From Pseudomonadota bacterium (GTDB taxonomy: Bacteria > Pseudomonadota > Gammaproteobacteria > Burkholderiales > Burkholderiaceae_C), in assembly GCA_029779845.1 (NCBI GenBank), contig JAKOZT010000064.1, positions 334 to 64,333 of the forward strand: a stretch of 64,000 bases of DNA. The letters run 5' to 3'. The first letter of the stretch is position 1; each line of letters opens with the position of its first letter. Below are positions 1 to 28,482 of the stretch, one piece after another. Below the pieces are notes generated by a model. The model was not told where the DNA came from. It saw nothing but the letters and a program-made list of their open reading frames with translations, and did not search any database. The position numbers and the translations under genes are program-made.

Positions 1-39
1 CCCGAGCTGCGCTTCTATGCCATTGATCGCAACGTCGTA

Positions 40-1122: not shown

Positions 1123-1142
1123 GGAAGGCTTCCTCGGAAGGG

Positions 1143-10345: not shown

Positions 10346-10346
10346 G

Positions 10347-11369
10347 TCATGCCTTCCCGAGTTGGGTGGCGAGCGTGCTCTTCCACACGTCCAGCTTCAC
10401 CGTCGCCTTGAAGCGATCCAGCGCGTAGAACTTCTGCCCCTCGTCGTCCTTCGGGTCGCCGAACACCTGGCGGTAGGGGAAGCGCAGCATCTGCAAGGCG
10501 TACTCGTTCGACTCCAGCGTGCCGCCGCTGTGGGGCGCCTTGGCGGCGAGGCGCTGGCGCAGCGTGTGGATGTCGATGACGCCCGGCGCGCCGGCGCGGA
10601 ACGGCACCTCGACCGAGTTCGCGTTGGTGAAGTCGTCCAGCGGCGGCACGCTGTCGCCCGTGTTGCAGTCGCGCACCTTGACCTTGGCGCGGCGTGCGTT
10701 GGGCGGGTCCTCCGGATCGAGGCGCGCGCCGAACTGGATGCCCTGGCGCGGCTCCTCGATGTGCACCACTGCCGGCACGCCGTCGAACAGCACCAGCAGC
10801 ACCGCCGGCGCGAGGCGCTCCATGCGCAGCACCTTCATGCGCGCCGGGTGCGACTCGGCCACGTCGCTCAGCTCGGCGTCGGGCAGCGAATCGGTGGAAT
10901 AGGCGCGCACGTGCAGGTTGGGCCAGCCCGACACCGCGCGCGAGCGCATCAGAAAGCCGGTGATCGTGCCGCTGCCGGCCTTCAGCAAGGCCTCGCCGCG
11001 CGGCTTGCGGATCGTGCGCTCGGCCTCGTCGACCTCGGCGCGGATGTGCGGGTACACCGCTTCGAGCTGCGTGCGGTCGGCGCTGCTGATGGTGCCGACG
11101 CTGAGCGCGCCTTGCACCAGCGCATCGGTCCAGGCGCGGTCGAGGTAGAAGAAGCGGATGGATTCGACCGGCAGCAGCGCGGCATCCGGCACGAGGTAGC
11201 TGAAAGGCACGCCGTGCAGCAGGCGCAGCCGCGCGAGGAAGCGGCGCAGCTCGCCGGGCACGACGTGCGCGCCGTCGTCGGGGTCGTTGTCGGTGGCGAT
11301 CTCGGCGTAGTGCGTCGCGGCCTTCACGGCCGCCCGCAGAGCGACTTCGGCGCTGATGGTGGACTTCAT
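10347..11369 (-). CDS. hypothetical protein, 340 aa (operon member)
   Basis: Distal part of track ORF 10347..13016. ATG at 11369-11367 (MKSTISAEVALRAAVKAATHYAEI) overlaps the upstream stop as ATGA. Composition is normal after this Met and Arg/Gly-rich junk before it. Notable motif: LLHGVPFSYLVPDAALLPVESIRFFYLDRAWTDALVQGALSVG. Confidence 0.8.
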   Translation of the reverse strand: MKSTISAEVALRAAVKAATHYAEIATDNDPDDGAHVVPGELRRFLARLRLLHGVPFSYLVPDAALLPVESIRFFYLDRAWTDALVQGALSVGTISSADRTQLEAVYPHIRAEVDEAERTIRKPRGEALLKAGSGTITGFLMRSRAVSGWPNLHVRAYSTDSLPDAELSDVAESHPARMKVLRMERLAPAVLLVLFDGVPAVVHIEEPRQGIQFGARLDPEDPPNARRAKVKVRDCNTGDSVPPLDDFTNANSVEVPFRAGAPGVIDIHTLRQRLAAKAPHSGGTLESNEYALQMLRFPYRQVFGDPKDDEGQKFYALDRFKATVKLDVWKSTLATQLGKA

Positions 11370-13378
11370 GGCTGGGCCTCCTCGTCGTCCTCGTCGGCGG
11401 GCGCATTGGCGATCAGATCGTCGAGTGCATCCGGCATGCGCGCCGCCTGCGCGCGCCGCACGCCGCCGATCACCCCCTTGGTGGGCGGCGCCGCCACCGC
11501 CAGCGTGCGCTGCAGCTCGCCTTGCAGCGCGGCGCGCAGCGCGGGGATCACCAGCTTTTCGCTCGGCGCCTGGCCGGGCTGCACCGCCAGCGGCACGCCG
11601 GTGGTCTGCAAGGCGCTGAGCAGGCCGACCGCGTCGGCGCGTTTCTTCAGCGCGGCGAGGTCGAAGCCGAGTCCGGCGGCGACCAGCTTGTCGAGGTCGC
11701 CATCGACGCGCAGCGGCCGCCCCGGATCGGCCACCGGGCGCTGCGGGCCGATCATGCGATCGGTGTTCTTCGCCAGCACCGGCAGCACCTGCATCGCGAC
11801 GAAGCGGCCGAGATCGACGCGCTCGTCGCGCAGGTCGGGCAGCGCGAAGGGCATCAGCTCGGCGAGGATCTCGCGCACGCGCCCGGCGCCGAACTGCTCG
11901 GCGCGGAAGCGCAGCAGCGCCGACACCACCGACAGCTGCGACAGCGCCAGCAGCCGGCCGATCTCGAAGGCGGCGGCCAGCGCCAGGTCTTCGCGGCCGT
12001 CGGGGATCACGCGGCGCAGCTGGTCGGCCGAATGCGCCAGCGCGAGCGGCTCGTCCTTCGCGTTCGAATCGCGCGGCGTCGGGAAGGGCACGCAGGGGCC
12101 GCGGTACCAGGCGCGCAGCGGGTCGCCGCGGCGCGTGCGGTGCGCCAGGCCGATGTGGCCGGTCTGCACCACCTCGGGCTGGGCCTGGGAAGCGGGGGAA
12201 TTCGGCGCGACTTCGGGCACGCTGCCGAGCAGGCCGACGTCGAGATCCTGCATCAAGGTCTCGAAGGTCGCGCCCTCGTTGGTGGTGAACGACCAGTGCG
12301 CCAGCAGCGGGAAGCGCAGCACCTTCTCCTGCGCGTACAGCTCGATCGGCAGGCGAAAGCCCAGCGCCATCGTGTCGCGCACCATGCGCTTGGCATCGGG
12401 GTCGAGCGCGGCGGCGGCCACCTTCTGCGTGGCGCTCGCGCTCCACTGCTTGCTCACCGTGGGCTGCTGCATCGTCGTGCCGCCGTCGAGCGCCGCGCCG
12501 AGCCTGGCGCCCTTGGCGTTGGCGTTGGCGGCCGCCAACGCCGCCTGCGCGCGCGGCGCGCCCGGGCCCAGCGCGGGCGAGGGCAGCACGACGTTGCCGA
12601 TGGCGACGTTGCCCATCACCTGCGCGTCGGCCGAGCCGAGCGCGTTGACCGTCGCGAGCACGGACCAGTCCTGCGCCAGCGCGAACTCGAAACTCGCCTT
12701 CGGCGGCTGCGGCTTGGGCAGCGCCTCGAGCTGGCCTTCGAGGTTGACCAGGCAGGCCATGTAGCGCACCGGCTTGCCTGCTGCCTTGTCGAACACCGGC
12801 AGGCGGTTGGCCAGCACCACCGCGAGCCAGCCGTCGTCGTCGCCGTTGGCGAGTTCGGTGTCGTTGACGTCGACCTCGCGCACGTGCGCGAGCAGCTCGA
12901 GATCTTCCTTGCAGGGGAAGACCTTCTTCACCACCGTCTCGGTGACGCCGAGGTACAGGCCCTGCTCGACGTCCTTGTCGCCGGGGTCGAGCAGCGCGGT
13001 GCCGGGCGTCACGCACTCGCGCACCGGCGTCGCGGTAGACAGCGTCGCCTCGCCTTCGGCCACCACCACCAGCGCGAGCCAGGGCGTGGGCGAAGGCGCG
13101 ATCGCGCCGGCCGGGTTGCGCTCCCAGGGCAGGGTGCGGCGCTTGAGCACGATCTGCGGCAACCGGTCGCCGAAGGCGCCTTCGGCGTTGGCGGGCGGGA
13201 AGCTGGACAGGATCTGGTCGACCGGCATCGTGTAGCGCGGCGCCGCCACCTGGATGTGCGTGCTCTCGGGCTCCACCTCGAAGGGCAGGCCGGTCTGCTC
13301 GGTGCGCAGCTCGTAGCGCCCCGCCGTGATCTTGGGCATCACGTTGGAGTGCAGGATGAAGTGGCCGGTGCGGGGCAT
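11366..13378 (-). CDS. hypothetical protein, 670 aa (operon member)
   Basis: Complete track ORF (MPRTGHFILHSNVMPKITAGRYELRTEQ..) with normal composition and an acidic C-terminus (ADEDDEEAQP). ATG at 13378, with an alternative ATG 13 codons downstream. No clear SD for either start. No recognisable domain. Confidence 0.75.
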   Translation of the reverse strand: MPRTGHFILHSNVMPKITAGRYELRTEQTGLPFEVEPESTHIQVAAPRYTMPVDQILSSFPPANAEGAFGDRLPQIVLKRRTLPWERNPAGAIAPSPTPWLALVVVAEGEATLSTATPVRECVTPGTALLDPGDKDVEQGLYLGVTETVVKKVFPCKEDLELLAHVREVDVNDTELANGDDDGWLAVVLANRLPVFDKAAGKPVRYMACLVNLEGQLEALPKPQPPKASFEFALAQDWSVLATVNALGSADAQVMGNVAIGNVVLPSPALGPGAPRAQAALAAANANAKGARLGAALDGGTTMQQPTVSKQWSASATQKVAAAALDPDAKRMVRDTMALGFRLPIELYAQEKVLRFPLLAHWSFTTNEGATFETLMQDLDVGLLGSVPEVAPNSPASQAQPEVVQTGHIGLAHRTRRGDPLRAWYRGPCVPFPTPRDSNAKDEPLALAHSADQLRRVIPDGREDLALAAAFEIGRLLALSQLSVVSALLRFRAEQFGAGRVREILAELMPFALPDLRDERVDLGRFVAMQVLPVLAKNTDRMIGPQRPVADPGRPLRVDGDLDKLVAAGLGFDLAALKKRADAVGLLSALQTTGVPLAVQPGQAPSEKLVIPALRAALQGELQRTLAVAAPPTKGVIGGVRRAQAARMPDALDDLIANAPADEDDEEAQP

Positions 13379-13400
13379 GTCAGTGGTCCGCGTGAAACAA

Positions 13401-13571
13401 CCGTTCGCCCTGAGCGGGGGACTGAGCTTGTCGAAGTCCCCGTGTCGAAGGGGCGGCGATGGCGGGGCGCCTCGAGGGCTTCGACAAAGCCTGTCCTGAG
13501 CTTGTCGAAGGGCTCAGCCCCTTCGGCAAGCTCAGGACCCGCGGGGGCTTCGACAAGCTCAGCCCGAACGG
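13401..13571. repeat. cluster of REP-like palindromic units (CTGAGCTTGTCGAAG / CTTCGACAAGCTCAG) in the intercistronic gap
   Basis: CTGAGCTTGTCGAAG occurs at 13422-13436 and 13496-13510. Its reverse complement CTTCGACAAGCTCAG is at 13548-13562, with a degenerate copy CTTCGACAAAGCCTG at 13479-13493. Outer arms are CCGTTCG (13401-13407) and CGAACGG (13565-13571). A related copy lies at 55381-55453. Confidence 0.8.
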
Positions 13572-13602
13572 AGCAGGGGGGCAGCAGATACCGGTTTTCA
13601 TT

Positions 13603-16600
13603 TCAGCGTCGTCCTCTCGATGTGCGTTGGCTGCCGCGCGCCATGCGCCGCGCCAGCGCCATCACCGCGGTGCCGCCTTGCGCGCGCGCCTTGGCGGTGG
13701 CGCGTTCGTCGGCGCTGCGCGTCGGCGCCACCCAGGCGATGCGGCTGGTGGCGGCACCTTCGGCGGGGTTCATCGCCGCGAAGGGCTGCATCGCCGCGTC
13801 CAGCCCGCGCGAGGCGACCAGCGCCACCGCGCCGGTGGCGTCGACCTCGGCCGAGGCCATCACGCCGACCAGTGACCAGCCTTGCTCGCTGGCGATGGTC
13901 ACGACCACCGGCCGGATGTCGCCCTGACCGCCCTCGGGCACGATGTCGTAGGCGAGCACGCTGCGGTTGTCCATCGCCAGCAGCACCGGCGCGCGTTCGT
14001 TGCCGGCGGCGTCGAGCGCGCGCGCGGCGCCGTCGAGGCCCAGCAGCAATTGCCGCGCTTCGATCGGCTCGCCCGAGGCCGCCGGGTCGTCGAGCGCGAT
14101 CAGCACGGTGCGTGCCGGGATGGAGAAGGTGGTGGTCACCGTGCTGACGCCGCGCGCCAGCTCGGCGCCGCCGACCCAGCCGGCCTCCAGCCGCTCGCGG
14201 TGCGGCATCAGGCGCTCGCCGGCCGAGCGAGCCACGCAGCCCGGGCCGATGGCGCTGCCCCAGCCGGCATACGGCAGCTGCATGCCGGCGTGCCAGCCGG
14301 CCAGGCCGATGCGCGCGCCGGCGGCCGCACCGGCACGCTGCACCACGCCCTGGCCGATCGCGACGATGCGCTCGGTGCCTTGCGGAATCTCGAGGTTGTC
14401 GCGCTGCATCTCGGGGCCGACCAGCACATCGGCGATGGTCCGGCCGCCATGCGCGAGCAGTACCACACGCGCCGGCGCACCTGTCACCACGAGGCGAGGC
14501 CTGCGGCCCTCGGGCGCGGCGTCGGCGCGCGCGTTGGGCAGCTTGAGCACCACGGTCTGCCCGGTGGCGAGCGCAGCGCCGGGGCTGTTGGCGGCGCTGG
14601 CACCGGCACGCGCCGCACGCAGCGTCGAGCCCACGGCCAGCGCGCTGCCGAATTCCGCCAGCGGCGCGGCCAGCGGCGTGCCGCGGCGCGCCACCAGCGC
14701 GGTCGCGCCGTGCGCCACCGCGCTGGGCGGCACGCTCTGCGCGGCGATCAGCGTGGCGGCACCGCCTTCGCGGCCGTTCATCGCCGGCGTGTCGGTGACG
14801 ACCAGCTTGGCCGCGACGGAGCGGCTGCGCTGCGCTTCCACGCCGGCCAGCGTCGGCGGCGCCGTGCGCCAGGCGCGCTCCGAGCCCTTCACCGTGGTGC
14901 GCACCTTGGCCGCGGCGGCGATGCCCACCGTCGCGCCGGCCAGCAGGCCGACGACCAGCGGCGCGTCGACGAAATGGTCGTAGACCTTGGGCGCGGGCGG
15001 CTCGGCGGTGTCGGGCACGGTGATGGGCGTGGCGGCTTCCAGCCCTTCGGTCAGCGTGCCCAGCCGCGGCGGCGCCTGGCGTTCGCCGCGCAGCGCCGCC
15101 AGCGCGGTGGGCGAAGCGCGCGAGGCGAGGAAGTCCCGGGCCGACGCGAACGCCGCATCGACGCTGGTGGGCGCCGCCAGCAGTTCGCTCACCGACTTCG
15201 CCGCATTGCGCTGCGCGTTGATCTCGACGGCGCGGCGCGTGAAGGGCAGCGGCTTGCGCTTGCCGATCTCGACCTGGTAATACGGAATCTCCGGCCCGCC
15301 CGGCGTGGGCGTGGCGCTGCACACCATGTCGAGCTCGGACAGCGCCTCGATCATCTCGGCCTTGGGCACCTTGCGCGCGTTCGGGTCTTGCGGCAGCCCC
15401 CACACGCCGACCGGGAAGCGCCCGAACGGCCGCGCGCGGTCGACGAAGGGGTAGGGCTGGTCGACGCCGTTGCGCCGCCAGCTGATCACGATGGTCGGCG
15501 TGACGTTCGCCTTGTCCATCGGTGCGACGCCGAGCGCGCGGCTGGGCGCGTGGTTGCTGGTCGCCTGTGCCGCCGGCGCCAGCGTGCGCGTGACGCGCGA
15601 GGCCGGCACGGTGCTGGTGAACGTCATCGAGAACTCGACCACCACGACGAAGGGCCGCGAGGACGATCCATCCGGCGTCGAGTCCTCGCCCTTGGCCGGC
15701 AGCGCGCCGGTGTTGGTCATCAGCGCGTGCGGGCGTGCCTTGCCGCTGTCGGCCGCTTCGAGGTACTTGAGGATGAAGGCGTCGGCCGCCAGCGGCTGCT
15801 TCTGCTCCTTGCCGTCGCCGCCGAACTCGAAGGTCAGCTCGATCGGGCCGACCTCGAAGGTGACGCTGCCGCGGAACTCCGGGCCGAGCACGTGGATGCG
15901 CGCGCCGAGGTGGATCGAGATCGTGATCTCGCCGAACAGCCAGGTGTCGATGGTCACGCCCGCGGCGATGCGCGCGTAGGCCATCACGTCGTAGTGGAAG
16001 GGATCGAAGTAGACGATGCCGTGCGCGCCGAACTTCACCTCGGCCCAGGCCGGCCCGAAATGCGCCGAGGCCTCGAAGTCGCCGCCGGCCATCAGCGCCT
16101 CGGAGGTCAGCGCGAAGTAGCTGCCGGCCTTGATGACGATGTTGTCGCCGATGCTCCAGCGCAGCCCCAGGCGCGGCACCACCGGGTAGCCGTCGCGGTG
16201 GAAGTCGGGGTGGTAGCCGCCCAGCGTCAGCACGAACTCGCCGGCCTTCTCGCCCTTGAACCAGATCACGTAGGCGAAGCCGCCGGTCAGCTTGATGTCG
16301 GGGTAGAGCAGCCAGGAGTTGTCGGTCAGCTGCCCCTGCACCCACAGCACGCCCTCGCTGCTGGAAAAGCGCACCAGCAGCGCCAGCTCGATCGAGACGA
16401 TCGCCGCCTGCGGGCGTGGCAGCGCCATGCGCGCCAGGCCCATCAGGTTGATGTCCAGCCCGTCGCCGATCTGCACGCCCACCACCGCGATGCCGTCGAC
16501 CAGCGCGAAGCTGTTGAAGCTCAGCCCGGCGGCGAACCAGAAGGTGCCCTTCTTCATCGGGAAGTAGTTGCCCAGCGCGCGCAGCTGCGCCATCGGTTCG

Positions 16601-19600
16601 CCGGGCTTGGCGGCGATGTCCAGCGCCTGGATCAGCGGGTAGTCGCCGAACTTCGCGAGGTCGCTCGGCAGGCGCATCAGCCGGTTGATGCCGAAGCCGC
16701 CGCCGATGCCGGTGAGGAAGAAGGCCGGCGGCCCGCCGATCGGCCCGTTGACCGCACCGATCGCGAAGAAGGCGGTGAAGCGCTGGCCGTTCTCCTCGCC
16801 CTCGCCATAGCCGCCGTAGACCGTCAGGCCGTAGACCGCGAAGCGGCCCAGCAGCATGCCGAGGTACTCGATGTTCGGCGCCACGCCCTGCTTGAGCAGG
16901 CCGCCGGCGATGGACACGCCGGCCATGTCGGCCGAGACCGCCAGGCCGGCCAGGTCGATGGACCAGCTGCCCGGGTTGAAGAAGTCGTTGTTGCCGACGA
17001 AGTAGGTGATCTGCAGGTCGTCGACCGCGCAGGTCAGCCCGAACATGGACACCGAGCCGTCCATCAGCAGCGAGATGCGCTCCAGGCGGCCTTGGGGCGA
17101 GGCGGCGCCGAAGCCGATCTGCTCGAGGTACAGCGGGCCGAAGCCCTTCTGGATCGCGATCCACCACGGCCCGGTGCCGTCGCCTGCCGTGAGCGACACC
17201 TGCACCGCGCCGCCGTCGTGCGCCTGGATCGCCAGCGCGGGCGAAAACGCCGGCTTGGGCGGCGTCGGCCCGGTGTCGCGCATCACGCCCTGCGCGATGC
17301 CGTTGTCGCCCTTGGCGCCGGAGGCCGAGACGGCGAGATTCGAGAACTGCAACTGCGCGCCGCCGCCCTTGACGCCGGCCGCCGTGATCGCGGCGAAGAC
17401 GTGCAGCGCGATGGATTCGAGCGTGATGCCGGCGTCGAGCAGCGGCCCGGAGCGCTTGCCGACGCGCAGCCCCAGGCCGTTGACGACCAGGCTGGGCTCG
17501 AAGCGCAGCGGCAGCGTGGGCGGGATGAAGCCGACGAACAGGCCGCCGTCGTCCGTGCCGGACGCGCCGTCGATCCAGCGCGCATCGTTCTCCAGCCACA
17601 GCGACACGTCGCCTTCGACCAGCGCGAAACGATCGCCCACGCCGACCTGCAAGCCGATCGTGCCGGTGTCGTCGTGCTGCTTGAACGCGAGCACGAAGTC
17701 GTCGATCGTGATCGTGATGCCCGCGCCGGCGATGTTGGTGAAGAGGCGGTGGAAGCGCGCGAGCAGCGTGGCCGGGTCGAACAGGCCGTCGATGAGCTGC
17801 GCGTTGTCGGCCGGATCGAGCACCACGCCTTCGAGCAGGAAGCGCACGTTCCGGTCGCCGACTTCGGTGTCGAGCAGATCCTTCACCGGCTGCTGCGCCA
17901 TCGCGACGGCGGCCACCAGGTCGGCGACGATGTCGACGATGCGCAGCGCCACCTGCGCCGGGTCGGCGGTGGCCACGGCGGTGGCGAGCGCGCCGTCGCT
18001 GGCGACGATGTCGAAGCCGCCGCCGTCCAGCCTCCAGCGCGCCGCGAAGTGGTGCGTGTCGTCGGCCGAGAGCCCGACCATCACGCGCCGCCCGCCGGCC
18101 GGCGCGAGGCCGGCGGCCACACTCGCGAACGGCCGCAGCCGCACACCGCCGGCGTCTATGTCGGCGGGGCCGAGCGCGACGCTCAGTTCGTCGAGGCCGG
18201 CGGCGCTGATGGCCAGCGTCAGGCCCAGCGTCTCGATGCCCGGCACGGGGATGCCGGGCACGCTGATCGCGACGCGGCTGGAGGCGGGGCGCCAGGAGAG
18301 CGTGAAGAGATCGTCGACGGCGACACGCAGCTCGTTGACGTCGCCGCTGGCGCTCACCTGGGCGGGCAGGAAGTCGTCGAGGATGGGCGCGATCAGGTTC
18401 AGGCCGGTGGCGGTGATCGAAGGCACCGCCGCTGTCAGCGCGCCCACAGGGTTGGCAGCCCATTGCCGCAGCGCCTCGGCGCTGAAGGCTTTGGGCGTGC
18501 CGGCGCGCAGCGCCAGCGCATCGCCGACGGTGCGCACCAGATTGCCCGGCGTGCCGGGCAGCTCGGCGAGCTTGTCGAGCAGGAAGGGCAAGGCCGCCTC
18601 GGCCGCCGCCGCGAGGCCGCCCAGGCCGGCGAAGGGCACCAGCGCAATGTCGGCGCCGCTGGCCGGGCGCAGGAAGAGTTCGACGCCGGCGTTGCCGATG
18701 CGCGTGTGCACCGCCTGGCGTCCCGGTTCGGCGCTGTCGAGGCCGAGATGCGCTTCGAGTGCCACGCGCGGAGCGCCGCTCAGGCCCACCGCGAGGCTTG
18801 CGCCGATCGCGCCCGACAGGCGCGCACCGCCGCCGCCCGGCGCGGCCCACACGCTCGGATCGACCGCGATGAGCAGCCGCGCGCCGCCACCGTCGGCGCT
18901 GACCGCCAGACTGACGCCGTTGGCGATCGACAAGGGCGAGCCCGGCGCACCGGTCAAGCCCATCAAGGGGCGCAGCGCGTCGAAGAGGGTCTGGATCTTC
19001 AGCGGATTGGCAGCAAGGGATTCCGCGCTGCGCAGCCAGCCCGCCGGGTCGGCCAGCAGTCCGGGGAGCGGGCGCAGCGCGCGCTCCGCGTCGCCGGCTG
19101 TGCCGGCGAGCATGCCGAAGGCATCCAGCATCGCGTCGATCAATGGCCGCGCTTCTTCGTCGGCGCGGCGCATCAGTTCGAGCGCGACGTGCGCCGCGAG
19201 GCTGGGCGCCGCCTGCGCGAGCAGCCGCGCGAGCGCCTCGCCATCGGGCGCCGGCCACAGCGGCGCGATCGCCGTGCGCGTGCTGCTCTGATGCCAGTGC
19301 AGATCGACCGCGAAGGGGTTCAGCGCGATCTGCAATTGCACGCCGCCGACGGTGGGCAGCGCCGTGCCGGGGCCGACGCTCAGCGTGCCCGTCAGCCCGG
19401 CGGGCGACGCGCTGACATCCGCCGCCCAGCCGAAACGCCCCGTGCCGCTGCCTTGCACATGCACCGCGTGCGCGGCTAGGTCGACGCTGGCGCCCAGCGG
19501 GCCGAGCAGCGCATTGACCGCCGATGCGAGCTGCCCACCGGCCGCGGCAAGCCGCTGGCGGATCAATCCGGCCGGGTCGTGCACGAGTTGGTCGACCGCA

Positions 19601-22600
19601 TCGCCGACCACGCCGCCATTCACGCCGGTCAGCCCGAGCGCGGCGAACAGATTCGACAGCGCCAGCGAACGTGCGCTGCCCAGGTCGGCCGTCAGCCGCT
19701 GCACCGCGGCGGAGAGCAGCACACGCGCCTCGGGCAGCACCGGCAGCGCGTCGTCGCCGATCGCGCCGAGCGCCAGCGCCTCCCATGACTGGCCGAACAC
19801 ACGCGCTTCGTGCAGCACCACGCGCGCTTCGCCGGGCGAGCTGCCGTCCAGCGGCAGCGTCAGCACGGCCGACAGCGCGCGCAGTTCCAGTTCGGGCGTG
19901 GCGGCGAGCCAGCCGAGTGCATCGCCGATGCGCAGCTCGATGCGAAGTTCTTGGTCGTGTGCGATGCCTCCCGCGAGTTCGTAGCCGAACAGCCGCAGCT
20001 GCGCGCTGGCGCGGATGCGCAGCGTGCCGCTGTCGTCCTCGGGCAGCGCCCAGCGCAGGCCGGCGTGCACGCCGCTGGGCAGCGCAGCGGCGACGTCCCC
20101 GAACGCGGCACGCTCGGCGGCGCGCGAAGCGATGCCGGCGGCGACGATGGCGGTGAGCGCCTGCGCGATGCGTTCGGCCGGCACATCGCCGAACACCGCC
20201 TGCACCGCCAGCCCGGCGCGCGGCGCTTCGGGCGGCGCCACCGGCGGGCGCAGATCGGCGGCCGGGTCGGCCAGCGGCGCGAGTTCCATCAGCGCGCCGA
20301 CCAGCGCGCGGCCGAGCGCGAGGTCGTCGTTCTCGGTGCTGTCGGCCGGCGGCAGCAGGCGGTCGAGCAGGCGCAGCGCATCGGCGGTGGGCTGCACGCT
20401 GAGCGCGGTCAGCGAGATCGGTGCCAGCGGCGTGCCCAGCAGCACGAGGTCGGTGACGGCGACGCGCGCGGCCGGCTGCACCGCGAGGCGCGCCGCGTGG
20501 CCAGCACCGGCCAGGGCGACGACGGCGATGTCGCTGGCGACTCCCGCCAGCGCATCGAACACGCGGCCCAGGCGCGCGGCCTGCTCGGGCGTGCCGTCCG
20601 TGCTGCTGCCGGCTAACTTGCAATCGGCGCGAGTGCCGAGTGCGACGAACCACTCGCCCGCTTCCACCGCCGGCAGCGTGAACATCGCGGCGTCGAGCCC
20701 GGCGGTGCTGAGGTCGATGAGGCGATCCTCCGGCGCATCGGGCCAGGCGTTCGCGCCGAGCGCGACGTAGACCGTGGTCGTCGGCGTGCGGCCGAGCGCT
20801 TCGGCCAAGTCGAGCTGCCCGAGCAACTGCCCCGCGGCGCAGCCGACGCGCTTCAGCGTGATGCCGGCCGGTGTGCTCGCCGGCGGCGCGATGCGCCCGT
20901 CGCCGGCCAGCCAGCGCTGCGCGATCGAATCGAAGGCGGTCTCCAGCTCGCGCCCTTCGAGCAGCGCACGAAGGTCGGCTGCCACGCTCGCCTCGGCACG
21001 CAGCGCGGCGGCCAGCGCCACGGCCGGCAGGCCCGCATCGCCCGATTGCCAGTTGCGGATCGCATCGGAAGCCGCGCTCGCCAGCGGCGCCAGCCCTTCG
21101 GGCGGGAACCACACGGCGATGTTGGGCAGGCCCTCGGCGAGCGCGAAGTGGTACGGGTCTTCCGGCCGCCCGCTGCCCTCGATCACGCCGCGCGCCGCGC
21201 CCAGCCCGCCGAACGCATCGGCGACCAGCGCCAGCGCGTGCTCGCCCAGCTCGCTCATCGCCAGGCGCGGCAGCCAGTCGCGCAGCGCCGCTTCGGGCGA
21301 ATGGATCAGGTCGCCGAGGCGCAGCCGCGCGACGTTCACGTCGGTGGCCGGCTTCCAGCCCAGCGCGTTGACCAGCTCGGCCAGCGTGCCGCCGATCATG
21401 TCGCCGAGGTAGCCGGCGAGTGCCTCCACGCCGTCCCAGGCTTCGTCGGGCAGCGTGACGCTGCCATCGCTGCCGATGACCGGCAGCGTGATGGGCACAT
21501 TCACATCGGCGAGTTCGAGGCGCAGATGCGGCGCGCTGACCTCGGCCGCGAGCCCGCCCTCGGGCGCCCACGCGAGCCGCAGCCCGACGTGATCGGCAAC
21601 GACCGCCGCCGCATCGCCCAGCGCCAGCCGCGCGCGCTTCGGGTCGGCGCCGCGTTCGCGCGCGGTGAGCGTCGCTTCCACCGCGCCGAGCAGGCTGGCG
21701 CTGCGCGCGGCGAGGTCGATGCGCGCCAGCGCGACGGCGATGCGCGTCTCGACCACGGTGCAGCGCTGGCCGAGCGTGTCGATTTGCGTCGCGGCGCCCA
21801 GGCCGACGTTGAGCACGTCGCCGCTGGCCGACACTTCGAGCGCCAGCGGGCCGATCAGCGGCAGCCGCCACGGCGTGGCCGCGCTGCCGTCGCCGTCGAC
21901 GATGGATACGGCTTCGCTGGCATCGGTGAGCGCGAGGCGCAGCGCCGAGAGCACCTGGCGCGCCGCCGCGTCGTTGGTGACGAGCTGCCGCCAGTAGCCC
22001 ACCACCGCGGCCACCGGGTCGGCCATCAGCGCGGCGAGTGTCACCGCCGGAATGCCGGCGGGGGGCGAGAGCCCGAGCAGCTGCCGCGCCAGCGCGAGCG
22101 CATCGCCCAGGCCGGCGAGCAGTTCGCCCGCGATGTCTTCCACCGCGTTGCCGGCGGCGTCCATCACCGCGTCGGGCGAGGTGAGGTCTAGCGTGGCGTA
22201 GTCGTGCGTGCCGATGCGCACCGCGTCGGCGGCGAGCACGAAGTTCAGGTGCCGCTGCGCGTCGAGCCCGAAGCCCAGGCGCAGCGTGTCGGCGCGCACC
22301 ACGGTGGGCGCGGTGAGGTCGAGGATGCGCGCGCCGCTGCGCCCGGCCGCGGCCCACACGCCCAGGCTGGGCAGCGCGAAGGCCTGGCCGCTGACGAGGT
22401 CGATGCGGAAGATGTCGGCGCGCGCCTCGACGCGCGCCGCGTCGTTGCCGAGTTCGACCGCGAGGCTGGGCGTCAGCAGCGGGTTGCCGCTGGGGCCGCT
22501 GGCCATGCGCAGCGCGAGCGTCAGCTGCGCGACGCCGCCGAGATCGAAGCGCACCGCATCGCCGACGCGCGCGCCGCCCACCAGCGCGGCGAGGTGGCCC

Positions 22601-23463
22601 AGCCAGTCGGCGCGGCTCGCGTCGGCGGTGAGGATGCCGCGCACCCAGTCGGCCAGCGCGAGCGCGCCGCGCACGGGCAAGGTGGTGATCGGGAAATCGG
22701 GCACCGCATCGCCGCTGCGCAGGCCGAGCAGCCCGGCCACCGCGACCAGCGCCGGATGCGCCAGCGCCGCGTCGGCCTGCGCCTTCACCAGCGACATCAC
22801 CAGATCGAGCAGCGCGTCGTCGAGCTGGTCGGCGCCGTTGGCCGAGACGCGCATGTCGCGCGGCGCGGCGGCGCCGGGCAGTTGCAGGCCGGTGAGCGCG
22901 AGGCCGAAGACGGGGCCTTGCGGGTCGGTCGGCGAGGTGGGCAGGTCGACTTCGAGCCCGATGCCGCCCAGGCGCGCCTGCCCCGGCACCGGCGCATTGC
23001 CGTCGATGGTGATCGTGGTGGCGACGCGGATGCGCCCGCCCGCCGAGCCGAGCAGCAGCGGCTGGCTGACCGCCGGCCCGCCCTGCTTGTGCGCGCGAAA
23101 CAGCGGCAGCGCCAGCGTGGTGGTCGAGGCCGGGTCGGTGGTGGCCACGCGCAGCCCCAGGCCGATGTGCAGGCCGTCGCTGCGGCCCTCGTCGATGGTG
23201 ACGGCCACCGCCAGCGGCGGGTCGTCGATCTCGACGATCGGCAGCCAGGTGACGCCGCCTTCGCTGCTGCGATCGGCGCCGCCCATCGCCTCGTCGACGA
23301 AGGCGATCAGCGCCGCGCGCTGCGCCTCGTTGGCGAGCATGTTCTTCAGCGACTCCTCGGGGTGGGCGAACCATCCCTGGTTGGGGTTGCCCGAGGCGTC
23401 GAACAGGCCCAGCGCTTTCGCCAGGTGGCCGAGCACGCCGAGATCGCCGCTGGTCATGCCCAT
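13603..23463 (-). CDS. giant hypothetical protein, 3286 aa, with beta-rich DUF6603-like core
   Basis: Complete track ORF (MGMTSGDLGVLGHLAKALGLFDASGNPNQGWF..) with balanced composition across its whole length. The competing same-strand ORF 13598..23374 is Arg-rich junk. ATG at 23463 has GAGG about 8 nt upstream. The core at about nt 15810-17000 (GGLLKQGVAPNIEYLGMLLGRFAVYGLTVYGGYG..FFLTGIGGGFGINR..GGYHPDF..VTFEVGPIELTFEFGG) resembles Pfam DUF6603 from memory; this is unverified. Confidence 0.85.
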   Translation of the reverse strand: MGMTSGDLGVLGHLAKALGLFDASGNPNQGWFAHPEESLKNMLANEAQRAALIAFVDEAMGGADRSSEGGVTWLPIVEIDDPPLAVAVTIDEGRSDGLHIGLGLRVATTDPASTTTLALPLFRAHKQGGPAVSQPLLLGSAGGRIRVATTITIDGNAPVPGQARLGGIGLEVDLPTSPTDPQGPVFGLALTGLQLPGAAAPRDMRVSANGADQLDDALLDLVMSLVKAQADAALAHPALVAVAGLLGLRSGDAVPDFPITTLPVRGALALADWVRGILTADASRADWLGHLAALVGGARVGDAVRFDLGGVAQLTLALRMASGPSGNPLLTPSLAVELGNDAARVEARADIFRIDLVSGQAFALPSLGVWAAAGRSGARILDLTAPTVVRADTLRLGFGLDAQRHLNFVLAADAVRIGTHDYATLDLTSPDAVMDAAGNAVEDIAGELLAGLGDALALARQLLGLSPPAGIPAVTLAALMADPVAAVVGYWRQLVTNDAAARQVLSALRLALTDASEAVSIVDGDGSAATPWRLPLIGPLALEVSASGDVLNVGLGAATQIDTLGQRCTVVETRIAVALARIDLAARSASLLGAVEATLTARERGADPKRARLALGDAAAVVADHVGLRLAWAPEGGLAAEVSAPHLRLELADVNVPITLPVIGSDGSVTLPDEAWDGVEALAGYLGDMIGGTLAELVNALGWKPATDVNVARLRLGDLIHSPEAALRDWLPRLAMSELGEHALALVADAFGGLGAARGVIEGSGRPEDPYHFALAEGLPNIAVWFPPEGLAPLASAASDAIRNWQSGDAGLPAVALAAALRAEASVAADLRALLEGRELETAFDSIAQRWLAGDGRIAPPASTPAGITLKRVGCAAGQLLGQLDLAEALGRTPTTTVYVALGANAWPDAPEDRLIDLSTAGLDAAMFTLPAVEAGEWFVALGTRADCKLAGSSTDGTPEQAARLGRVFDALAGVASDIAVVALAGAGHAARLAVQPAARVAVTDLVLLGTPLAPISLTALSVQPTADALRLLDRLLPPADSTENDDLALGRALVGALMELAPLADPAADLRPPVAPPEAPRAGLAVQAVFGDVPAERIAQALTAIVAAGIASRAAERAAFGDVAAALPSGVHAGLRWALPEDDSGTLRIRASAQLRLFGYELAGGIAHDQELRIELRIGDALGWLAATPELELRALSAVLTLPLDGSSPGEARVVLHEARVFGQSWEALALGAIGDDALPVLPEARVLLSAAVQRLTADLGSARSLALSNLFAALGLTGVNGGVVGDAVDQLVHDPAGLIRQRLAAAGGQLASAVNALLGPLGASVDLAAHAVHVQGSGTGRFGWAADVSASPAGLTGTLSVGPGTALPTVGGVQLQIALNPFAVDLHWHQSSTRTAIAPLWPAPDGEALARLLAQAAPSLAAHVALELMRRADEEARPLIDAMLDAFGMLAGTAGDAERALRPLPGLLADPAGWLRSAESLAANPLKIQTLFDALRPLMGLTGAPGSPLSIANGVSLAVSADGGGARLLIAVDPSVWAAPGGGGARLSGAIGASLAVGLSGAPRVALEAHLGLDSAEPGRQAVHTRIGNAGVELFLRPASGADIALVPFAGLGGLAAAAEAALPFLLDKLAELPGTPGNLVRTVGDALALRAGTPKAFSAEALRQWAANPVGALTAAVPSITATGLNLIAPILDDFLPAQVSASGDVNELRVAVDDLFTLSWRPASSRVAISVPGIPVPGIETLGLTLAISAAGLDELSVALGPADIDAGGVRLRPFASVAAGLAPAGGRRVMVGLSADDTHHFAARWRLDGGGFDIVASDGALATAVATADPAQVALRIVDIVADLVAAVAMAQQPVKDLLDTEVGDRNVRFLLEGVVLDPADNAQLIDGLFDPATLLARFHRLFTNIAGAGITITIDDFVLAFKQHDDTGTIGLQVGVGDRFALVEGDVSLWLENDARWIDGASGTDDGGLFVGFIPPTLPLRFEPSLVVNGLGLRVGKRSGPLLDAGITLESIALHVFAAITAAGVKGGGAQLQFSNLAVSASGAKGDNGIAQGVMRDTGPTPPKPAFSPALAIQAHDGGAVQVSLTAGDGTGPWWIAIQKGFGPLYLEQIGFGAASPQGRLERISLLMDGSVSMFGLTCAVDDLQITYFVGNNDFFNPGSWSIDLAGLAVSADMAGVSIAGGLLKQGVAPNIEYLGMLLGRFAVYGLTVYGGYGEGEENGQRFTAFFAIGAVNGPIGGPPAFFLTGIGGGFGINRLMRLPSDLAKFGDYPLIQALDIAAKPGEPMAQLRALGNYFPMKKGTFWFAAGLSFNSFALVDGIAVVGVQIGDGLDINLMGLARMALPRPQAAIVSIELALLVRFSSSEGVLWVQGQLTDNSWLLYPDIKLTGGFAYVIWFKGEKAGEFVLTLGGYHPDFHRDGYPVVPRLGLRWSIGDNIVIKAGSYFALTSEALMAGGDFEASAHFGPAWAEVKFGAHGIVYFDPFHYDVMAYARIAAGVTIDTWLFGEITISIHLGARIHVLGPEFRGSVTFEVGPIELTFEFGGDGKEQKQPLAADAFILKYLEAADSGKARPHALMTNTGALPAKGEDSTPDGSSSRPFVVVVEFSMTFTSTVPASRVTRTLAPAAQATSNHAPSRALGVAPMDKANVTPTIVISWRRNGVDQPYPFVDRARPFGRFPVGVWGLPQDPNARKVPKAEMIEALSELDMVCSATPTPGGPEIPYYQVEIGKRKPLPFTRRAVEINAQRNAAKSVSELLAAPTSVDAAFASARDFLASRASPTALAALRGERQAPPRLGTLTEGLEAATPITVPDTAEPPAPKVYDHFVDAPLVVGLLAGATVGIAAAAKVRTTVKGSERAWRTAPPTLAGVEAQRSRSVAAKLVVTDTPAMNGREGGAATLIAAQSVPPSAVAHGATALVARRGTPLAAPLAEFGSALAVGSTLRAARAGASAANSPGAALATGQTVVLKLPNARADAAPEGRRPRLVVTGAPARVVLLAHGGRTIADVLVGPEMQRDNLEIPQGTERIVAIGQGVVQRAGAAAGARIGLAGWHAGMQLPYAGWGSAIGPGCVARSAGERLMPHRERLEAGWVGGAELARGVSTVTTTFSIPARTVLIALDDPAASGEPIEARQLLLGLDGAARALDAAGNERAPVLLAMDNRSVLAYDIVPEGGQGDIRPVVVTIASEQGWSLVGVMASAEVDATGAVALVASRGLDAAMQPFAAMNPAEGAATSRIAWVAPTRSADERATAKARAQGGTAVMALARRMARGSQRTSRGRR

Positions 23464-23473
23464 GGCGGCCGCC

Positions 23474-24097
23474 TCACTTCGGCGCCTTCAGCGTCGACGA
23501 ACCCGAGAAGCGGTGCCGCGCCATCGGCAGGATCTGGATGCCGCGCGCGCTGACCGCCAGCTCCACCGGCACCAGCAGGTTGCCGCGCGCGTCCTTGCCG
23601 GTGGCCGCGGCGATGCCGGTGACCAGGCCCAGCACGCATTGCCACGCAAAGGCCACCAGCGCATCGCCCCAGGCCGCGACCACCACTTCCGACCCGTTCG
23701 GGCGGCGCGCGGTGGCGGCGTACAGGCCGGCCGGCTCGCTGGGCGAGCCGGTGGCGAACAGCACCTCGACGCTCGCCGCGCCGCTCTGGTCGCAGCGCAC
23801 CGGGATGCGCACGCGGATCAGCCCGTCGGCGAGCTTGACGTCGACGCCCGCGATGCCCACCGCCAGCTCGTTCTCGCCCTCGACCCACACCACTTCGCTG
23901 CGCTGGGTGGGGCGGAAGAAGCCGGCGGCGCGGCGCGAGGCCACGCGCAGCAGCTCGACGCTGCGGCCCGCGGCGATGAACACCGGCTCGAAGACATCGC
24001 CCTCGGCCATCTTGCGCGCGGCCAGCGCCGGCAGGCGCTTGGCGCGGCGCTCGGCCTCGACGAATCGCGCGAACTCCGGGGCGACGGTCTCGGTCAA
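23474..24097 (-). CDS. hypothetical protein, 207 aa (first gene of operon)
   Basis: Complete track ORF (MTETVAPEFARFVEAERRAKRL..). The start codon is TTG (plus strand caa at 24095-24097) with AGGAGGG 4 nt upstream. The stop lies 10 nt before the giant gene start. No recognisable domain. Confidence 0.65.
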   Translation of the reverse strand: MTETVAPEFARFVEAERRAKRLPALAARKMAEGDVFEPVFIAAGRSVELLRVASRRAAGFFRPTQRSEVVWVEGENELAVGIAGVDVKLADGLIRVRIPVRCDQSGAASVEVLFATGSPSEPAGLYAATARRPNGSEVVVAAWGDALVAFAWQCVLGLVTGIAAATGKDARGNLLVPVELAVSARGIQILPMARHRFSGSSTLKAPK

Positions 24098-24131: not shown

Positions 24132-24244
24132 CCTCAATCTAGTTCGCCGTCACCACGTCGCCATCCCTAGCTTGCCGCGTCGAGCAAGGTGTTGCCATTG
24201 CTTGCAAAGCACGTGTGCGTGACCGTGCTGCTAGGCTGCGCGCC

Positions 24245-24940
24245 ATGCGCAACCTGATCGACTTCAGTTCCTGGCAGGGCCTGCTGTCGACGCTGCTCGG
24301 GCTGATCCTGGTGACGGCGATCGCGGTGGGCATCCGGCTGCTGGTGATGCAGCGCGTGCAGCAGCGCCGCGAACGCCAGAACCGCCAGATCAACGAGCGG
24401 CTGAAGACGCTGATCGCCGCCTACAAGACCCTCGGGGGCTCCTTCACCGGCGACCTCGCGGTGGACCCGAGCCACCTGCGCGACGTGCGCCTGCGCGGCG
24501 GCGAGGCGGCCGAAGGCGCCGACGGTTCCGAACGCCGCCGCCGCATCCGCGACGCGGTGGAGGCGGCGCTGTCCGACGTGATGCTGCTCGGCACCGCCGA
24601 GCAGGTGCGCCTGGCCGTGCAGGCCGCCGACGACATGGTGGCCGGCCGCCGCATCGAGACCGCCGCGCTGGTGATCTCGCTGCGCGACTTCATCCGCGAA
24701 GTGCTCGAACTCGACGCCGTGCCGGCCGACCTGGCGATGCCCAAGCAGGGGCCGCTGCGCAGCGTGGCGGCGGGTGGGCGTGGCGGGAACGCCGGTGCAG
24801 GTGCGGGAGCACGAGGCGGCGGAGGCGGTGGAGGCGCCGGCACCGGCATGGCCGCCGGCGGGGCGTTGGGGATCGGCGCGGGCCGCGCGGCGCAGGATGC
24901 CGACGATTCGTTGCCGGGTACGCAGACGCGCGAGAACTGA
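24245..24940 (+). CDS. hypothetical membrane protein with Gly-rich C-terminal region
   Basis: Track ORF 24215..24940 begins at a GTG; I prefer the ATG at 24245 (MRNLIDFSSWQ). One clear TM helix (GLLSTLLGLILVTAIAVGIRLLVM). The tail is GGRGGNAGAGAGARGGGGGGGAGTGMAAGG. Confidence 0.6.
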   Translation: MRNLIDFSSWQGLLSTLLGLILVTAIAVGIRLLVMQRVQQRRERQNRQINERLKTLIAAYKTLGGSFTGDLAVDPSHLRDVRLRGGEAAEGADGSERRRRIRDAVEAALSDVMLLGTAEQVRLAVQAADDMVAGRRIETAALVISLRDFIREVLELDAVPADLAMPKQGPLRSVAAGGRGGNAGAGAGARGGGGGGGAGTGMAAGGALGIGAGRAAQDADDSLPGTQTREN

Positions 24941-27937: not shown

Positions 27938-28411
27938 CTAGCCTGCCGCCAGCCACGCCTTGATCTGCCGCTGCACGGCCGGCTCCGACAGCCCCGTGCG
28001 CGGGTCGCACAGCACCAGCTCGGGCGGGGGCGGGTCGCCGAAGGCGACCGGCGAATCGTCGAGGATGATGTAGCTCGTCACCGTCGGGTGGCGCGCCAGC
28101 CAGGCCTGGATGCAGGCGTAGCGCTCGCCCTTGGGCGTGCAGCCGAGGTAGCGGTTGCCCAGGCTGCCGAGCAGGTCGCCGATCTCCTCGGGCGTGTGGT
28201 TGAAGCGCCAGTTGGAATGCACCACCACGTACACGTCGTCGTGGCCGGCCAGCAGGCCGGGCAGGATGTCGAACCAGCAGAAGGCGTCGAACCGCACGCG
28301 GGCCAGCGCCGAACCGCGGTGCGCGGCGCGCGCTTCGTCGTCGGTGGCGCAGGGGTGCGTGACGCCGCCGAAGTCGAGGAAGATGACGCGCATGTCCTGA
28401 TGATCCGCCAT
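27938..28411 (-). CDS. HAD-like domain protein with degenerate motif I, 157 aa
   Basis: Complete track ORF starting at ATG 28411 (MADHQDMRVIFLDFGGVTHP). LDFGGV sits where HAD motif I DxDG(T/V) is expected. Normal composition. Confidence 0.5.
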   Translation of the reverse strand: MADHQDMRVIFLDFGGVTHPCATDDEARAAHRGSALARVRFDAFCWFDILPGLLAGHDDVYVVVHSNWRFNHTPEEIGDLLGSLGNRYLGCTPKGERYACIQAWLARHPTVTSYIILDDSPVAFGDPPPPELVLCDPRTGLSEPAVQRQIKAWLAAG

Positions 28412-28482
28412 TCGGCGAGACTAGGGGCGCGCGGCGCCGCCGTCCCTGTGCCAACACAAAACCAAGCGATTGCCGGTTGCGG

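Follow-up and report, generated by a model that had tools for sequence, protein, structure and literature searches.

The question raised by the stretch of DNA analysed here (64,000 nt of contig JAKOZT010000064.1, assembly GCA_029779845.1, lineage Burkholderiaceae_C; hereafter the window) is what is encoded by a single open reading frame (ORF) of 3,286 aa on its reverse strand, and what so large a product might do. A first-pass annotation, made from the letters and their translations, had read this ORF (13603..23463) as one real gene, here called the giant, whose product would have a beta-rich core resembling DUF6603 and a role as scaffold or conduit. The evidence assembled below shows that the giant is a genuine full-length gene and is the second gene of a collinear, tightly packed seven-gene cassette of ~24 kb, that this cassette moves horizontally between distant bacterial phyla, and that its DUF6603 core has a predicted fold without a solved counterpart among the structures searched. 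The cassette has no likeness to any characterised system, whether by sequence, by profile or by fold. What it does can be proposed with much less assurance: tentatively, and at less than even probability, we read the giant as the scaffold that engages membranes within a mobile complex of toxin-like or conflict function.

GC content is ~73% across the window; at this composition long open frames are cheap, and the reading frame of the giant therefore needs testing. The codon-position GC of the giant frame (GC1/2/3 of.751/.533/.931) carries the signature of a real gene at 73% GC. The same-strand ORF 13598..23374 (-), which the first-pass annotation had dismissed as Arg-rich junk, was ruled out as a gene: its pattern is shifted (.931/.752/.533) and its translation is 30% Arg, as befits a shadow frame of the giant. 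Among related loci long enough to contain the gene, 44 hold it as a single uninterrupted ORF (median 3,285 aa), and the orthologues are intact and collinear even in isolates of 55–60% GC, such as Marinobacter. Against the closest relative (locus L003), the ratio of nonsynonymous to synonymous substitutions (dN/dS; Nei–Gojobori) is 0.35 overall, within a range of 0.24 to 0.49, with the lowest value in DUF6603 (0.24) and 0.43 in the tail; these values indicate that the giant is under purifying selection. Disruption of the giant is confined to error-prone long-read metagenome-assembled genomes (MAGs), which break neighbouring genes too: the gene is split into two to four pieces in contigs L001, L002, L030, L040, L068 and L069, and g670 and g1334, described below, are likewise broken in some of these loci. 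The splits have the look of frameshift errors and not of true pseudogenes, and on their account a protein search with the DUF6603 segment returned only fragments of at most 1,052 aa. High-GC genomes do give very long spurious ORFs, several of them present in the window (13598..23374, 1143..9611 and 10342..11406), but an artefact or decaying pseudogene is refuted as an explanation of the giant by its correct codon-position GC, its Pfam match, its intact orthologues, a dN/dS well below 1 and a DUF6603 family of 6,536 representatives (50% identity, E ≤1e-3) in a library of 1.84 billion proteins.

Shadow frames recur elsewhere in the window. The longest ORF in a non-coding frame is 3,258 aa, and others include 1143..9611 (-). 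An Arg-rich ORF of 354 aa at 10342..11406 (-) masks the true fourth gene of the cassette, 10347..11369 (-), and was rejected as that gene, being in the wrong frame; its junk translation still drew tblastn "hits" in related high-GC loci, an annotation trap.

The gene map of the cassette was set by GC3 framing (GC at third codon positions) and reads, all on the reverse strand, g207, giant, g670, g340, g1334, a variable propeller-like gene (here g1733) and gL360 (Table 1). The first-pass annotation had correctly noted a 207-aa partner encoded immediately upstream of the giant, and g207 ends 10 nt before the giant ATG, with its own Shine–Dalgarno-like site; that annotation lacked the five further genes downstream as well as the internal repeat of the giant. 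Junctions within the cassette are ATGA overlaps or spacers of 1–20 nt with Shine–Dalgarno-like sites, with the exception of the junction between the giant and g670. In the closest relative the giant stop and the g670 start overlap (TGATG); here they are parted by a palindromic insert, specific to this genome, that consists of four copies of CTTCGACAAGCTCAG in two inverted pairs and displaces the g670 ATG from its native Shine–Dalgarno site. The insert looks like an element of the repetitive extragenic palindromic (REP) or miniature inverted-repeat transposable element (MITE) type, and a further pair of the CTTCGACAAGCTCAG unit lies at 55390..55445 of the window. A scan of positions 1..19999 for sigma-70-type promoters and terminators gave nothing above shuffled expectation.

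The four smaller proteins that surround the giant are conserved with it and are otherwise without relatives among known families. Orthologues of g207, which has one moderately hydrophobic conserved helix (aa 146–165), are collinear in 52 loci at 26–97% identity; those of g670 and g340 occur in 63 loci each, the latter at 47–89% identity; and those of g1334 occur in 52 loci. None of these four proteins has a match in Pfam, NCBIfam, PADLOC or PHROGs, or a relative in the PDB by sequence or profile, and none of the 522 database relatives of g1334 has a Pfam domain; g670 has 1,505 relatives. A Pfam scan relaxed to E ≤5, covering every sequence in the alignments of g670 and of g1334, gave singleton noise only. 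The C-terminus is the best-conserved part of g1334, and no hypervariable C-terminal toxin was seen there. Comparison of the cassette proteins with each other by hhalign found no paralogy, and no recognisable nucleoside triphosphatase (NTPase) is encoded in the cassette. A structure prediction for g670, from 120 relatives that are all at least 62% identical, was of low confidence (predicted local distance difference test, pLDDT, 39.4; predicted template-modelling score, pTM, 0.26).

The core of the giant belongs to DUF6603, a family that the first-pass annotation had named for a Gly/aromatic block at nt ~15810–17000. Pfam PF20248 matches the giant at E 1.9e-113 (380.2 bits against a cutoff of 27; model positions 1–473 of 502), the block lies inside the match, and it is the sole Pfam match: nothing else appears down to E 0.1–1, and NCBIfam gives nothing. 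The giant is in this respect an ordinary member of the family, which is a sequence cluster in which the giants form a sub-clade. DUF6603 was matched in all 15 aligned giants and in distant proteins of Streptomyces, Paenibacillus and Salinigranum. It is the best-conserved part of the whole cassette, with 53–92% identity across phyla vs 26–87% for the rest of the giant, and per-column identity of.58–.77 vs.36–.50 elsewhere in the giant. The motifs PIGGPPAFFLTGIGGGFGINR and GGYHPxFHRDGYPVVPRLG are strongly kept across the 15 phylum-spanning orthologues, in which the polar residues H2418, R2431, E2359, D2487 and N2382 are invariant. In the literature searched, no function, structure or paper was found for DUF6603 (PF20248), and descriptive terms likewise returned nothing relevant.

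An AlphaFold2 model restricted to aa 1900–2720 of the giant (alignment of 66 sequences, 27–91% identity) reached a mean pLDDT of 87.6 and a pTM of 0.70, in keeping with the beta-rich core that had been proposed for it. The model is an up-and-down antiparallel meander of ~40 strands, many of them 12–19 residues long, in which 2-residue turns alternate with loops of 6–12 residues; the exceptions are a short helical insert (aa 2269–2300) and a small beta domain (aa ~2600–2715). The strands are dyad-amphipathic, with a mean Kyte–Doolittle hydropathy of +2.15 on one face vs -0.6 on the other, and they include the most hydrophobic conserved segments of the entire giant. Foldseek comparison of the model with the PDB retrieved Deinococcus SlpA (8ae1), ApoB100, LptD, the ushers FimD and PapC, porins and SprA, with E-values down to 2e-5, global TM-scores of 0.1–0.26 and a root-mean-square deviation (rmsd) of 20–45 Å; the best TMq was 0.21 (SlpA) and the best TMt 0.29 (a FimD domain), with rmsd of at least 20 Å. 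All of these weak neighbours are large lipid-embedded or lipid-wrapping antiparallel sheets, which share with the giant a long meander of amphipathic strands of 12–19 residues, but at such TM-scores they do not have the same fold as its core; in the models compared, the likeness to barrels is one of long-meander topology, not of shape. Outer-membrane beta-barrels differ further, in that the giant has no signal peptide or BAM-type context and its family extends to monoderms and an archaeon (Agrococcus, Marmoricola, Catellatospora, Streptomyces, Paenibacillus and Salinigranum). A Foldseek search of BFVD gave no TM-score (normalised by query length) above 0.16.

The N-terminal arm that precedes the core is read, from sequence comparison within the orthologue alignment, as about nine ~215-aa modules, in each of which a helix-type block precedes an amphipathic beta-type block. 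The first ~2000 aa had earlier been described as containing recurring short beta segments; the region is not featureless, and what recurs appears to be a cryptic helix+sheet repeat. Matching of slices of the 15-sequence alignment by hhalign detected internal repeats at 87–96% probability (aa 183–296 with 405–513, 463–552 with 701–792, 351–566 with 1158–1374, and 1249–1356 with 1423–1540). The alignment-averaged hydrophobic-moment profile shows A and B blocks in alternation, its autocorrelation has maxima at ~215, ~430 and ~600 aa, and this measure, though crude, matches the AlphaFold2 secondary structure in the modelled control region. A motif LLGL...DPxxaxxxW also recurs in the arm. At the other end, the ~570-aa tail (aa 2721–3286) has no assigned domain and no conserved transmembrane helix. 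The unassigned C-terminal part noted in the first-pass annotation amounts to about 700 aa, not ~1000.

As that annotation had stated, no signal peptide is visible on the giant, and no adhesin, RTX, Ig, toxin or enzyme family was found in Pfam or NCBIfam for it or for 14 orthologues. A candidate transmembrane helix at aa 2834–2854 was rejected, being unconserved in orthologues (alignment-mean hydropathy 0.28); outside the DUF6603 strands no conserved hydrophobic 19-mer was found in the giant, and its N-terminus is not hydrophobic. Searches of the PDB by sequence and by profile with the giant, g670, g1334, g340 and g207 returned no credible relative; the top scores fell on low-complexity stretches (Csm3, E 0.05; pescadillo, E 0.02).

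The locus scan, which used one genome per species, returned at least 561 loci, and tblastn of the window proteins recovered an identical gene order in almost all loci of sufficient length. The closest relatives are Piscinibacter MAGs (92% identity), and the host is probably a betaproteobacterium of the Burkholderiales, for all that its GC content resembles that of an actinomycete. Other carriers among Burkholderiales are Variovorax, Ideonella and Rhizobacter; further carriers are found in Alphaproteobacteria (Aliiroseovarius, Frigidibacter), Gammaproteobacteria (Marinobacter, Pseudoxanthomonas), isolates of Actinomycetota (Agrococcus, Marmoricola, Catellatospora) and MAGs of Acidobacteriota, Gemmatimonadota and Chloroflexota. 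Cultured carriers include Variovorax paradoxus, Rhizobacter sp. AJA081-3, Pseudoxanthomonas daejeonensis, Marinobacter, Aliiroseovarius and Agrococcus. The copy of the Gram-positive Agrococcus is 70% identical to the one described here, and those of alpha- and gammaproteobacterial isolates are 53–57% identical; since Agrococcus is the closer, transfer across phyla is indicated. The chromosomal context of the cassette differs from genome to genome. In the loci compared, conservation stops at g207 on the upstream side and at the small protease gene on the downstream side: no conserved flanking regulator, ATPase or integrase was found, and no export genes or transporter are linked.

Of the best 150 family members, at least ~80 are giants of full length, in which the domain always falls at residues ~1,850–2,950. 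This giant sub-clade spans ~3,250–3,650 aa, vs 848–1,167 aa for Gram-positive and archaeal members, and the short DUF6603 proteins are encoded on Paenibacillus, Streptomyces and haloarchaeal plasmids. On the Paenibacillus plasmid and two Streptomyces plasmids, the DUF6603 gene is followed by a gene for a 714–748-aa homologue in which g670 and g340 are fused, and then by one for a 1,050–1,213-aa homologue of g1334; the g340 profile matches the C-termini of the 714–748-aa proteins at E 4e-19 to 9e-30. On a fourth plasmid, that of S. europaeiscabiei, the matching positions are taken by genes for proteins of comparable length (927 and 1,419 aa), putative counterparts by size and position. The minimal form thus consists of A (DUF6603), B (g670+g340) and C (g1334) and is an ancient core; the arm and tail of the giant, together with g207, the propeller gene and the protease, are additions of the giant form.

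The surroundings of the short cassettes are varied. The cassette of the S. europaeiscabiei plasmid (L093) lies between tyrosine recombinase genes, and that of the Streptomyces sp. NBC_01276 plasmid (L091) lies beside CATRA/CHAT conflict-system genes. Genes for pentapeptide-repeat proteins occur both in L093 and close to the Paenibacillus locus (L083); in L083 a PLD-like protein follows the cassette. On the Salinigranum marinum plasmid (L090, 10307..29943) the DUF6603 gene stands between genes for a PhoD-like phosphatase and a 1,229-aa protein, the N-terminal part of which weakly matches g670; a 2,322-aa protein with BGTF surface domain and a lamin-tail-domain (LTD) protein are encoded downstream, and no g1334 homologue was detected at this haloarchaeal locus.

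The sixth gene is the variable member of the cassette, and comparison of its orthologues shows that it varies by domain accretion or is lost as a whole. Orthologues in other genera are 1,159–1,235 aa long and usually give no domain above threshold, only faint matches of Asp-box/Sortilin type; the gene is absent in Pseudoxanthomonas. Here, g1733 also contains an astacin insert (aa ~300–570) and a C-terminal beta-lactamase-like domain (aa ~1372–1733; Beta-lactamase2, E 1.5e-5), neither of which is present in the orthologues of other genera, and the insert in this gene occurs only here and in one relative, the g1334 of which is 96% identical. The Pfam match of the insert (aa 402–567, nt 4644..5141) has E 7.9e-44 and 150 bits against a cutoff of 22.5, includes the motifs HEIGHSLGLWHE and SIMHY, and is animal-like (BMP1/tolloid, E ~1e-34); its closest NCBIfam model is LegP (238 bits, below the cutoff of 300). 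The last gene, gL360, encodes a more distant astacin-like metzincin (Astacin, E 1.8e-6, 28.2 bits against a cutoff of 22.5; Peptidase_M10, E 6e-6) with the motifs HEFGHALGMIHEH, HEFGHALGMIHE (zinc site) and SIMEY (Met-turn) and a C-terminal domain that looks PPC-like by eye. An astacin-like gene of 357–375 aa also closes the cassette in Rhizobacter, Pseudoxanthomonas, Variovorax and a Gemmatimonadaceae MAG, after which unrelated genes follow.

The g1733 domain is thus a bona fide M12A astacin, although it is inserted in a propeller-like protein of 1,200 aa, is signal-less, and falls below the LegP equivalog cutoff, unlike M12A astacins and LegP. Secretion is the rule for astacins, which normally carry a signal peptide and a prodomain (PMC9848320). 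The zinc-binding and Met-turn motifs are kept in both g1733 and gL360, and neither protein has a signal peptide, which for g1733 is unusual for an astacin; no prodomain was identified on the g1733 astacin, for which no specific search was made.

Table 1. Positions of the cassette genes, of the parts of the giant and of the palindromic insert in the window.
Feature	Position	Strand	Description
g207	23474..24097	(-)	207 aa, first gene; TTG start, GAGGAGG 5 nt upstream
Giant gene	13603..23463	(-)	3,286 aa, ATG start; indicated by codon-position GC, orthologues and dN/dS
N-terminal arm of giant	aa 1-1913, nt 17725..23463	(-)	read as ~nine tandem ~215-aa modules
AlphaFold2-modelled region of giant	aa 1900-2720, nt 15304..17766	(-)	predicted all-beta up-and-down meander, ~40 strands
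Pfam DUF6603 core of giant	aa 2104-2586, nt 15706..17154	(-)	PF20248, E 1.9e-113
C-terminal tail of giant	aa 2721-3286, nt 13606..15303	(-)	less conserved, no assignable domain
REP/MITE-like palindromic insert	13379..13602	(.)	224 nt, giant stop to g670 start
g670	11366..13378	(-)	670 aa; core partner B, N-terminal and middle domains
g340	10347..11369	(-)	340 aa; ATG overlaps g670 stop; matches C-terminal part of partner B of short cassettes
g1334	6341..10345	(-)	1,334 aa; core partner C
g1733	1143..6344	(-)	1,733 aa; variable sixth gene, propeller-like (Asp-box)
gL360	40..1122	(-)	360 aa; last cassette gene, astacin-like metzincin

In the mechanism that we propose, the A, B and C core proteins would assemble into one large complex with the giant as its structural scaffold, and a pore or conduit would arise where the amphipathic DUF6603 beta core engages a lipid membrane or inserts into it. 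At the cassette end, the metalloproteases of astacin type would be delivered effectors or activators of the complex, and the variable sixth gene would provide an exchangeable accessory or cargo carrier. On this view the cassette would serve toxin-like or "conflict" purposes, its targets being competitors, grazers or phage-infected self, as opposed to a housekeeping role in the envelope. That the cassette is one unit is indicated by its tight junctions, shared gene order and unconserved flanks; transfer, varying contexts, recombinase and CATRA/CHAT neighbours, a fairly high dN/dS outside the core and the variable sixth gene are consistent with conflict-like behaviour. Engagement of a membrane by the core is suggested by the AlphaFold2 model, its dyad-amphipathic strands and the lipid-sheet neighbours weakly matched by Foldseek, and a role of the proteases as cargo or activators by their intact motifs without a signal peptide and by LegP, a translocated Legionella effector, as the nearest NCBIfam model. 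The scaffold-or-conduit role proposed in the first-pass annotation is compatible with the large amphipathic beta-meander of the model and with the modular arm.

Several findings weigh against a membrane-engaging conflict complex. No toxin domain besides the metzincins, no immunity-like gene and no NTPase is recognisable in the cassette, and PADLOC found no defence family: the six cassette proteins searched (gL360 left out) matched no family of PADLOC-DB v2 at E ≤0.01. The alternating hydrophobic and polar strand faces are equally compatible with a soluble beta-sandwich, and Foldseek TM-scores of 0.1–0.26 show only that a long-meander topology is shared. The g670 model has a pLDDT of only 39, and assembly of A, B and C is deduced from their conserved linkage alone. 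Short Gram-positive cassettes carry no recognisable protease, and in most genomes the cassette is flanked by metabolic genes, not by defence islands. The same six proteins gave no match in PHROGs, with no phage tail-like or contractile injection system or prophage genes, and tblastn against 50,697 phage records and a scan of IMG/VR found no relatives.

Two known kinds of system offer analogies to such a complex. The layout, and nothing beyond it, recalls the Tc (ABC) toxin complexes, which likewise come as mobile cassettes of several genes, combine one subunit above 2,500 aa in length with two others of at least ~1,000 aa, include accessory enzymes and a propeller component, and lack classical signal peptides on their subunits; however, Pfam detected no VRP1, TcA, TcB-binding, SpvB, Mid or RHS/YD domain in the giant or its six partners, and no RHS cocoon or TcA is among the Foldseek matches. 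Bacterial gasdermins with their proteases are likewise an analogy only: there too, a signal-less protein rich in beta-hairpins is paired with dedicated proteases, and the distribution is patchy, horizontally transferred and inclusive of archaea. The DUF6603 system differs in having no gasdermin family match, in being ten times larger, in its three obligatory large partners, in the negative PADLOC result and in the absence of proteases from its short cassettes.

A more far-reaching form of the proposal would make A/B/C a phylum-spanning machine built on a new fold of ~40 strands, with the giant form as a membrane-attacking or translocating complex carried on the nine-module arm; it would belong to the toxin-delivery or cell-suicide class, with the signal-less astacins as cargo or trigger and no NTPase. 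We consider this possible but doubtful. There is a comparable, and not negligible, chance that some explanation other than those set out in this text applies.

A better-defined competitor, in our view improbable, is an extracellular or surface assembly (a fibre, sheath, S-layer-like coat or adhesin complex) that leaves the cell by non-classical export or lysis, and whose proteases and propeller act on matrix or host surfaces. The modularity of the giant would suit such a structure, the top Foldseek match SlpA is an S-layer/outer-membrane protein, the accessory classes (an astacin with a PPC-like C-terminal domain, an Asp-box propeller) are usually extracellular, and the Salinigranum DUF6603 gene adjoins genes for BGTF and LTD surface-domain proteins. 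However, the seven proteins and their distant homologues have no signal peptide, lipobox, sortase signal, SLH domain or other wall anchor detectable by Pfam, no export genes are linked to the cassette, and the best-conserved part of the giant is a Gly/aromatic-rich core, not a variable exposed domain. Adhesin-type repeats are absent; in contrast to repeat adhesins, RTX proteins and other exoproteins, the giant contains no Ig-like, cadherin, RTX or FHA repeats, and its ~215-aa unit is novel.

Bridge-like lipid transfer has little chance of being the explanation: the modules and the DUF6603 sheet would then form a long hydrophobic groove, of the TamB/AsmA/YhdP or VPS13 type, that moves lipids or hydrophobic cargo through the envelope. 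The giant has in common with AsmA/TamB and VPS13-type proteins its great size, internal repeats, high beta content and a sheet with one hydrophobic face; its ~215-aa repeated module and long amphipathic beta-meanders fit a groove, and LptD and ApoB100 are among the weak Foldseek matches. The giant differs from these proteins in family, anchorage and distribution. No match to AsmA, AsmA_2 or TamB/DUF490 was found in Pfam or NCBIfam for the giant or 14 orthologues, and the comparison with a TamB/AsmA-like beta-taco that the first-pass annotation had suggested finds no support, with no structure of TamB, AsmA or LptA type among the best 50 Foldseek matches of the aa 1900–2720 model to the PDB. 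There is no N-terminal anchor and no conserved transmembrane helix, and the family is found in monoderm Actinomycetota, in Paenibacillus and in a haloarchaeon. A patchy, transferred single cassette with two proteases is also unlike a housekeeping envelope system. The helix of a beta-groove repeat is short, and the helical blocks of the arm, at ~90–100 aa, are far longer.

A similarly slim prospect is that DUF6603 is an enzyme or a substrate-binding domain (for polysaccharide or peptidoglycan, for example) and the cassette a processing pathway. In its favour, polar residues and Gly-rich motifs are very strongly conserved across the 15 orthologues, and dN/dS is lowest in DUF6603; however, no catalytic family was found in Pfam or NCBIfam and no PDB match by sequence, profile or fold, a 40-strand meander with strands of 12–19 residues is atypical of known enzyme folds, and the cassette has no linked genes of metabolism or transport.

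The DUF6603 family has a wide distribution, with members in at least five bacterial phyla and in soil, freshwater and marine bacteria, and a 24-kb block that is both maintained and exchanged amounts to about 0.5% of a typical genome. Five of the seven cassette proteins have no known domain beyond the DUF label, no solved relative and no literature that we found. If the fold does prove to be membrane-active or scaffolding, it would add a new architecture to the few large bacterial protein machines and explain a recurrent piece of genomic "dark matter"; even with a mundane function, three results are new and of use: a DUF6603 core model of high confidence, a defined A/B/C core and a corrected gene map of the cassette. 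The cultured carriers make the question directly testable.

In this genome the cassette is bordered on the right by ordinary chromosomal genes, which encode a Crp-type regulator, a TonB-dependent receptor, ATP-binding cassette (ABC) transport, NnrS and UvrD. A divergent ORF of 241 aa upstream of the cassette (24215..24940 (+)) has no family match and is conserved only in the closest relative. Just downstream of the Crp-type regulator gene, a 160-aa protein (27938..28420 (-)) has a "Swiss Army Knife" RNA-repair HAD domain (E 5.7e-21).

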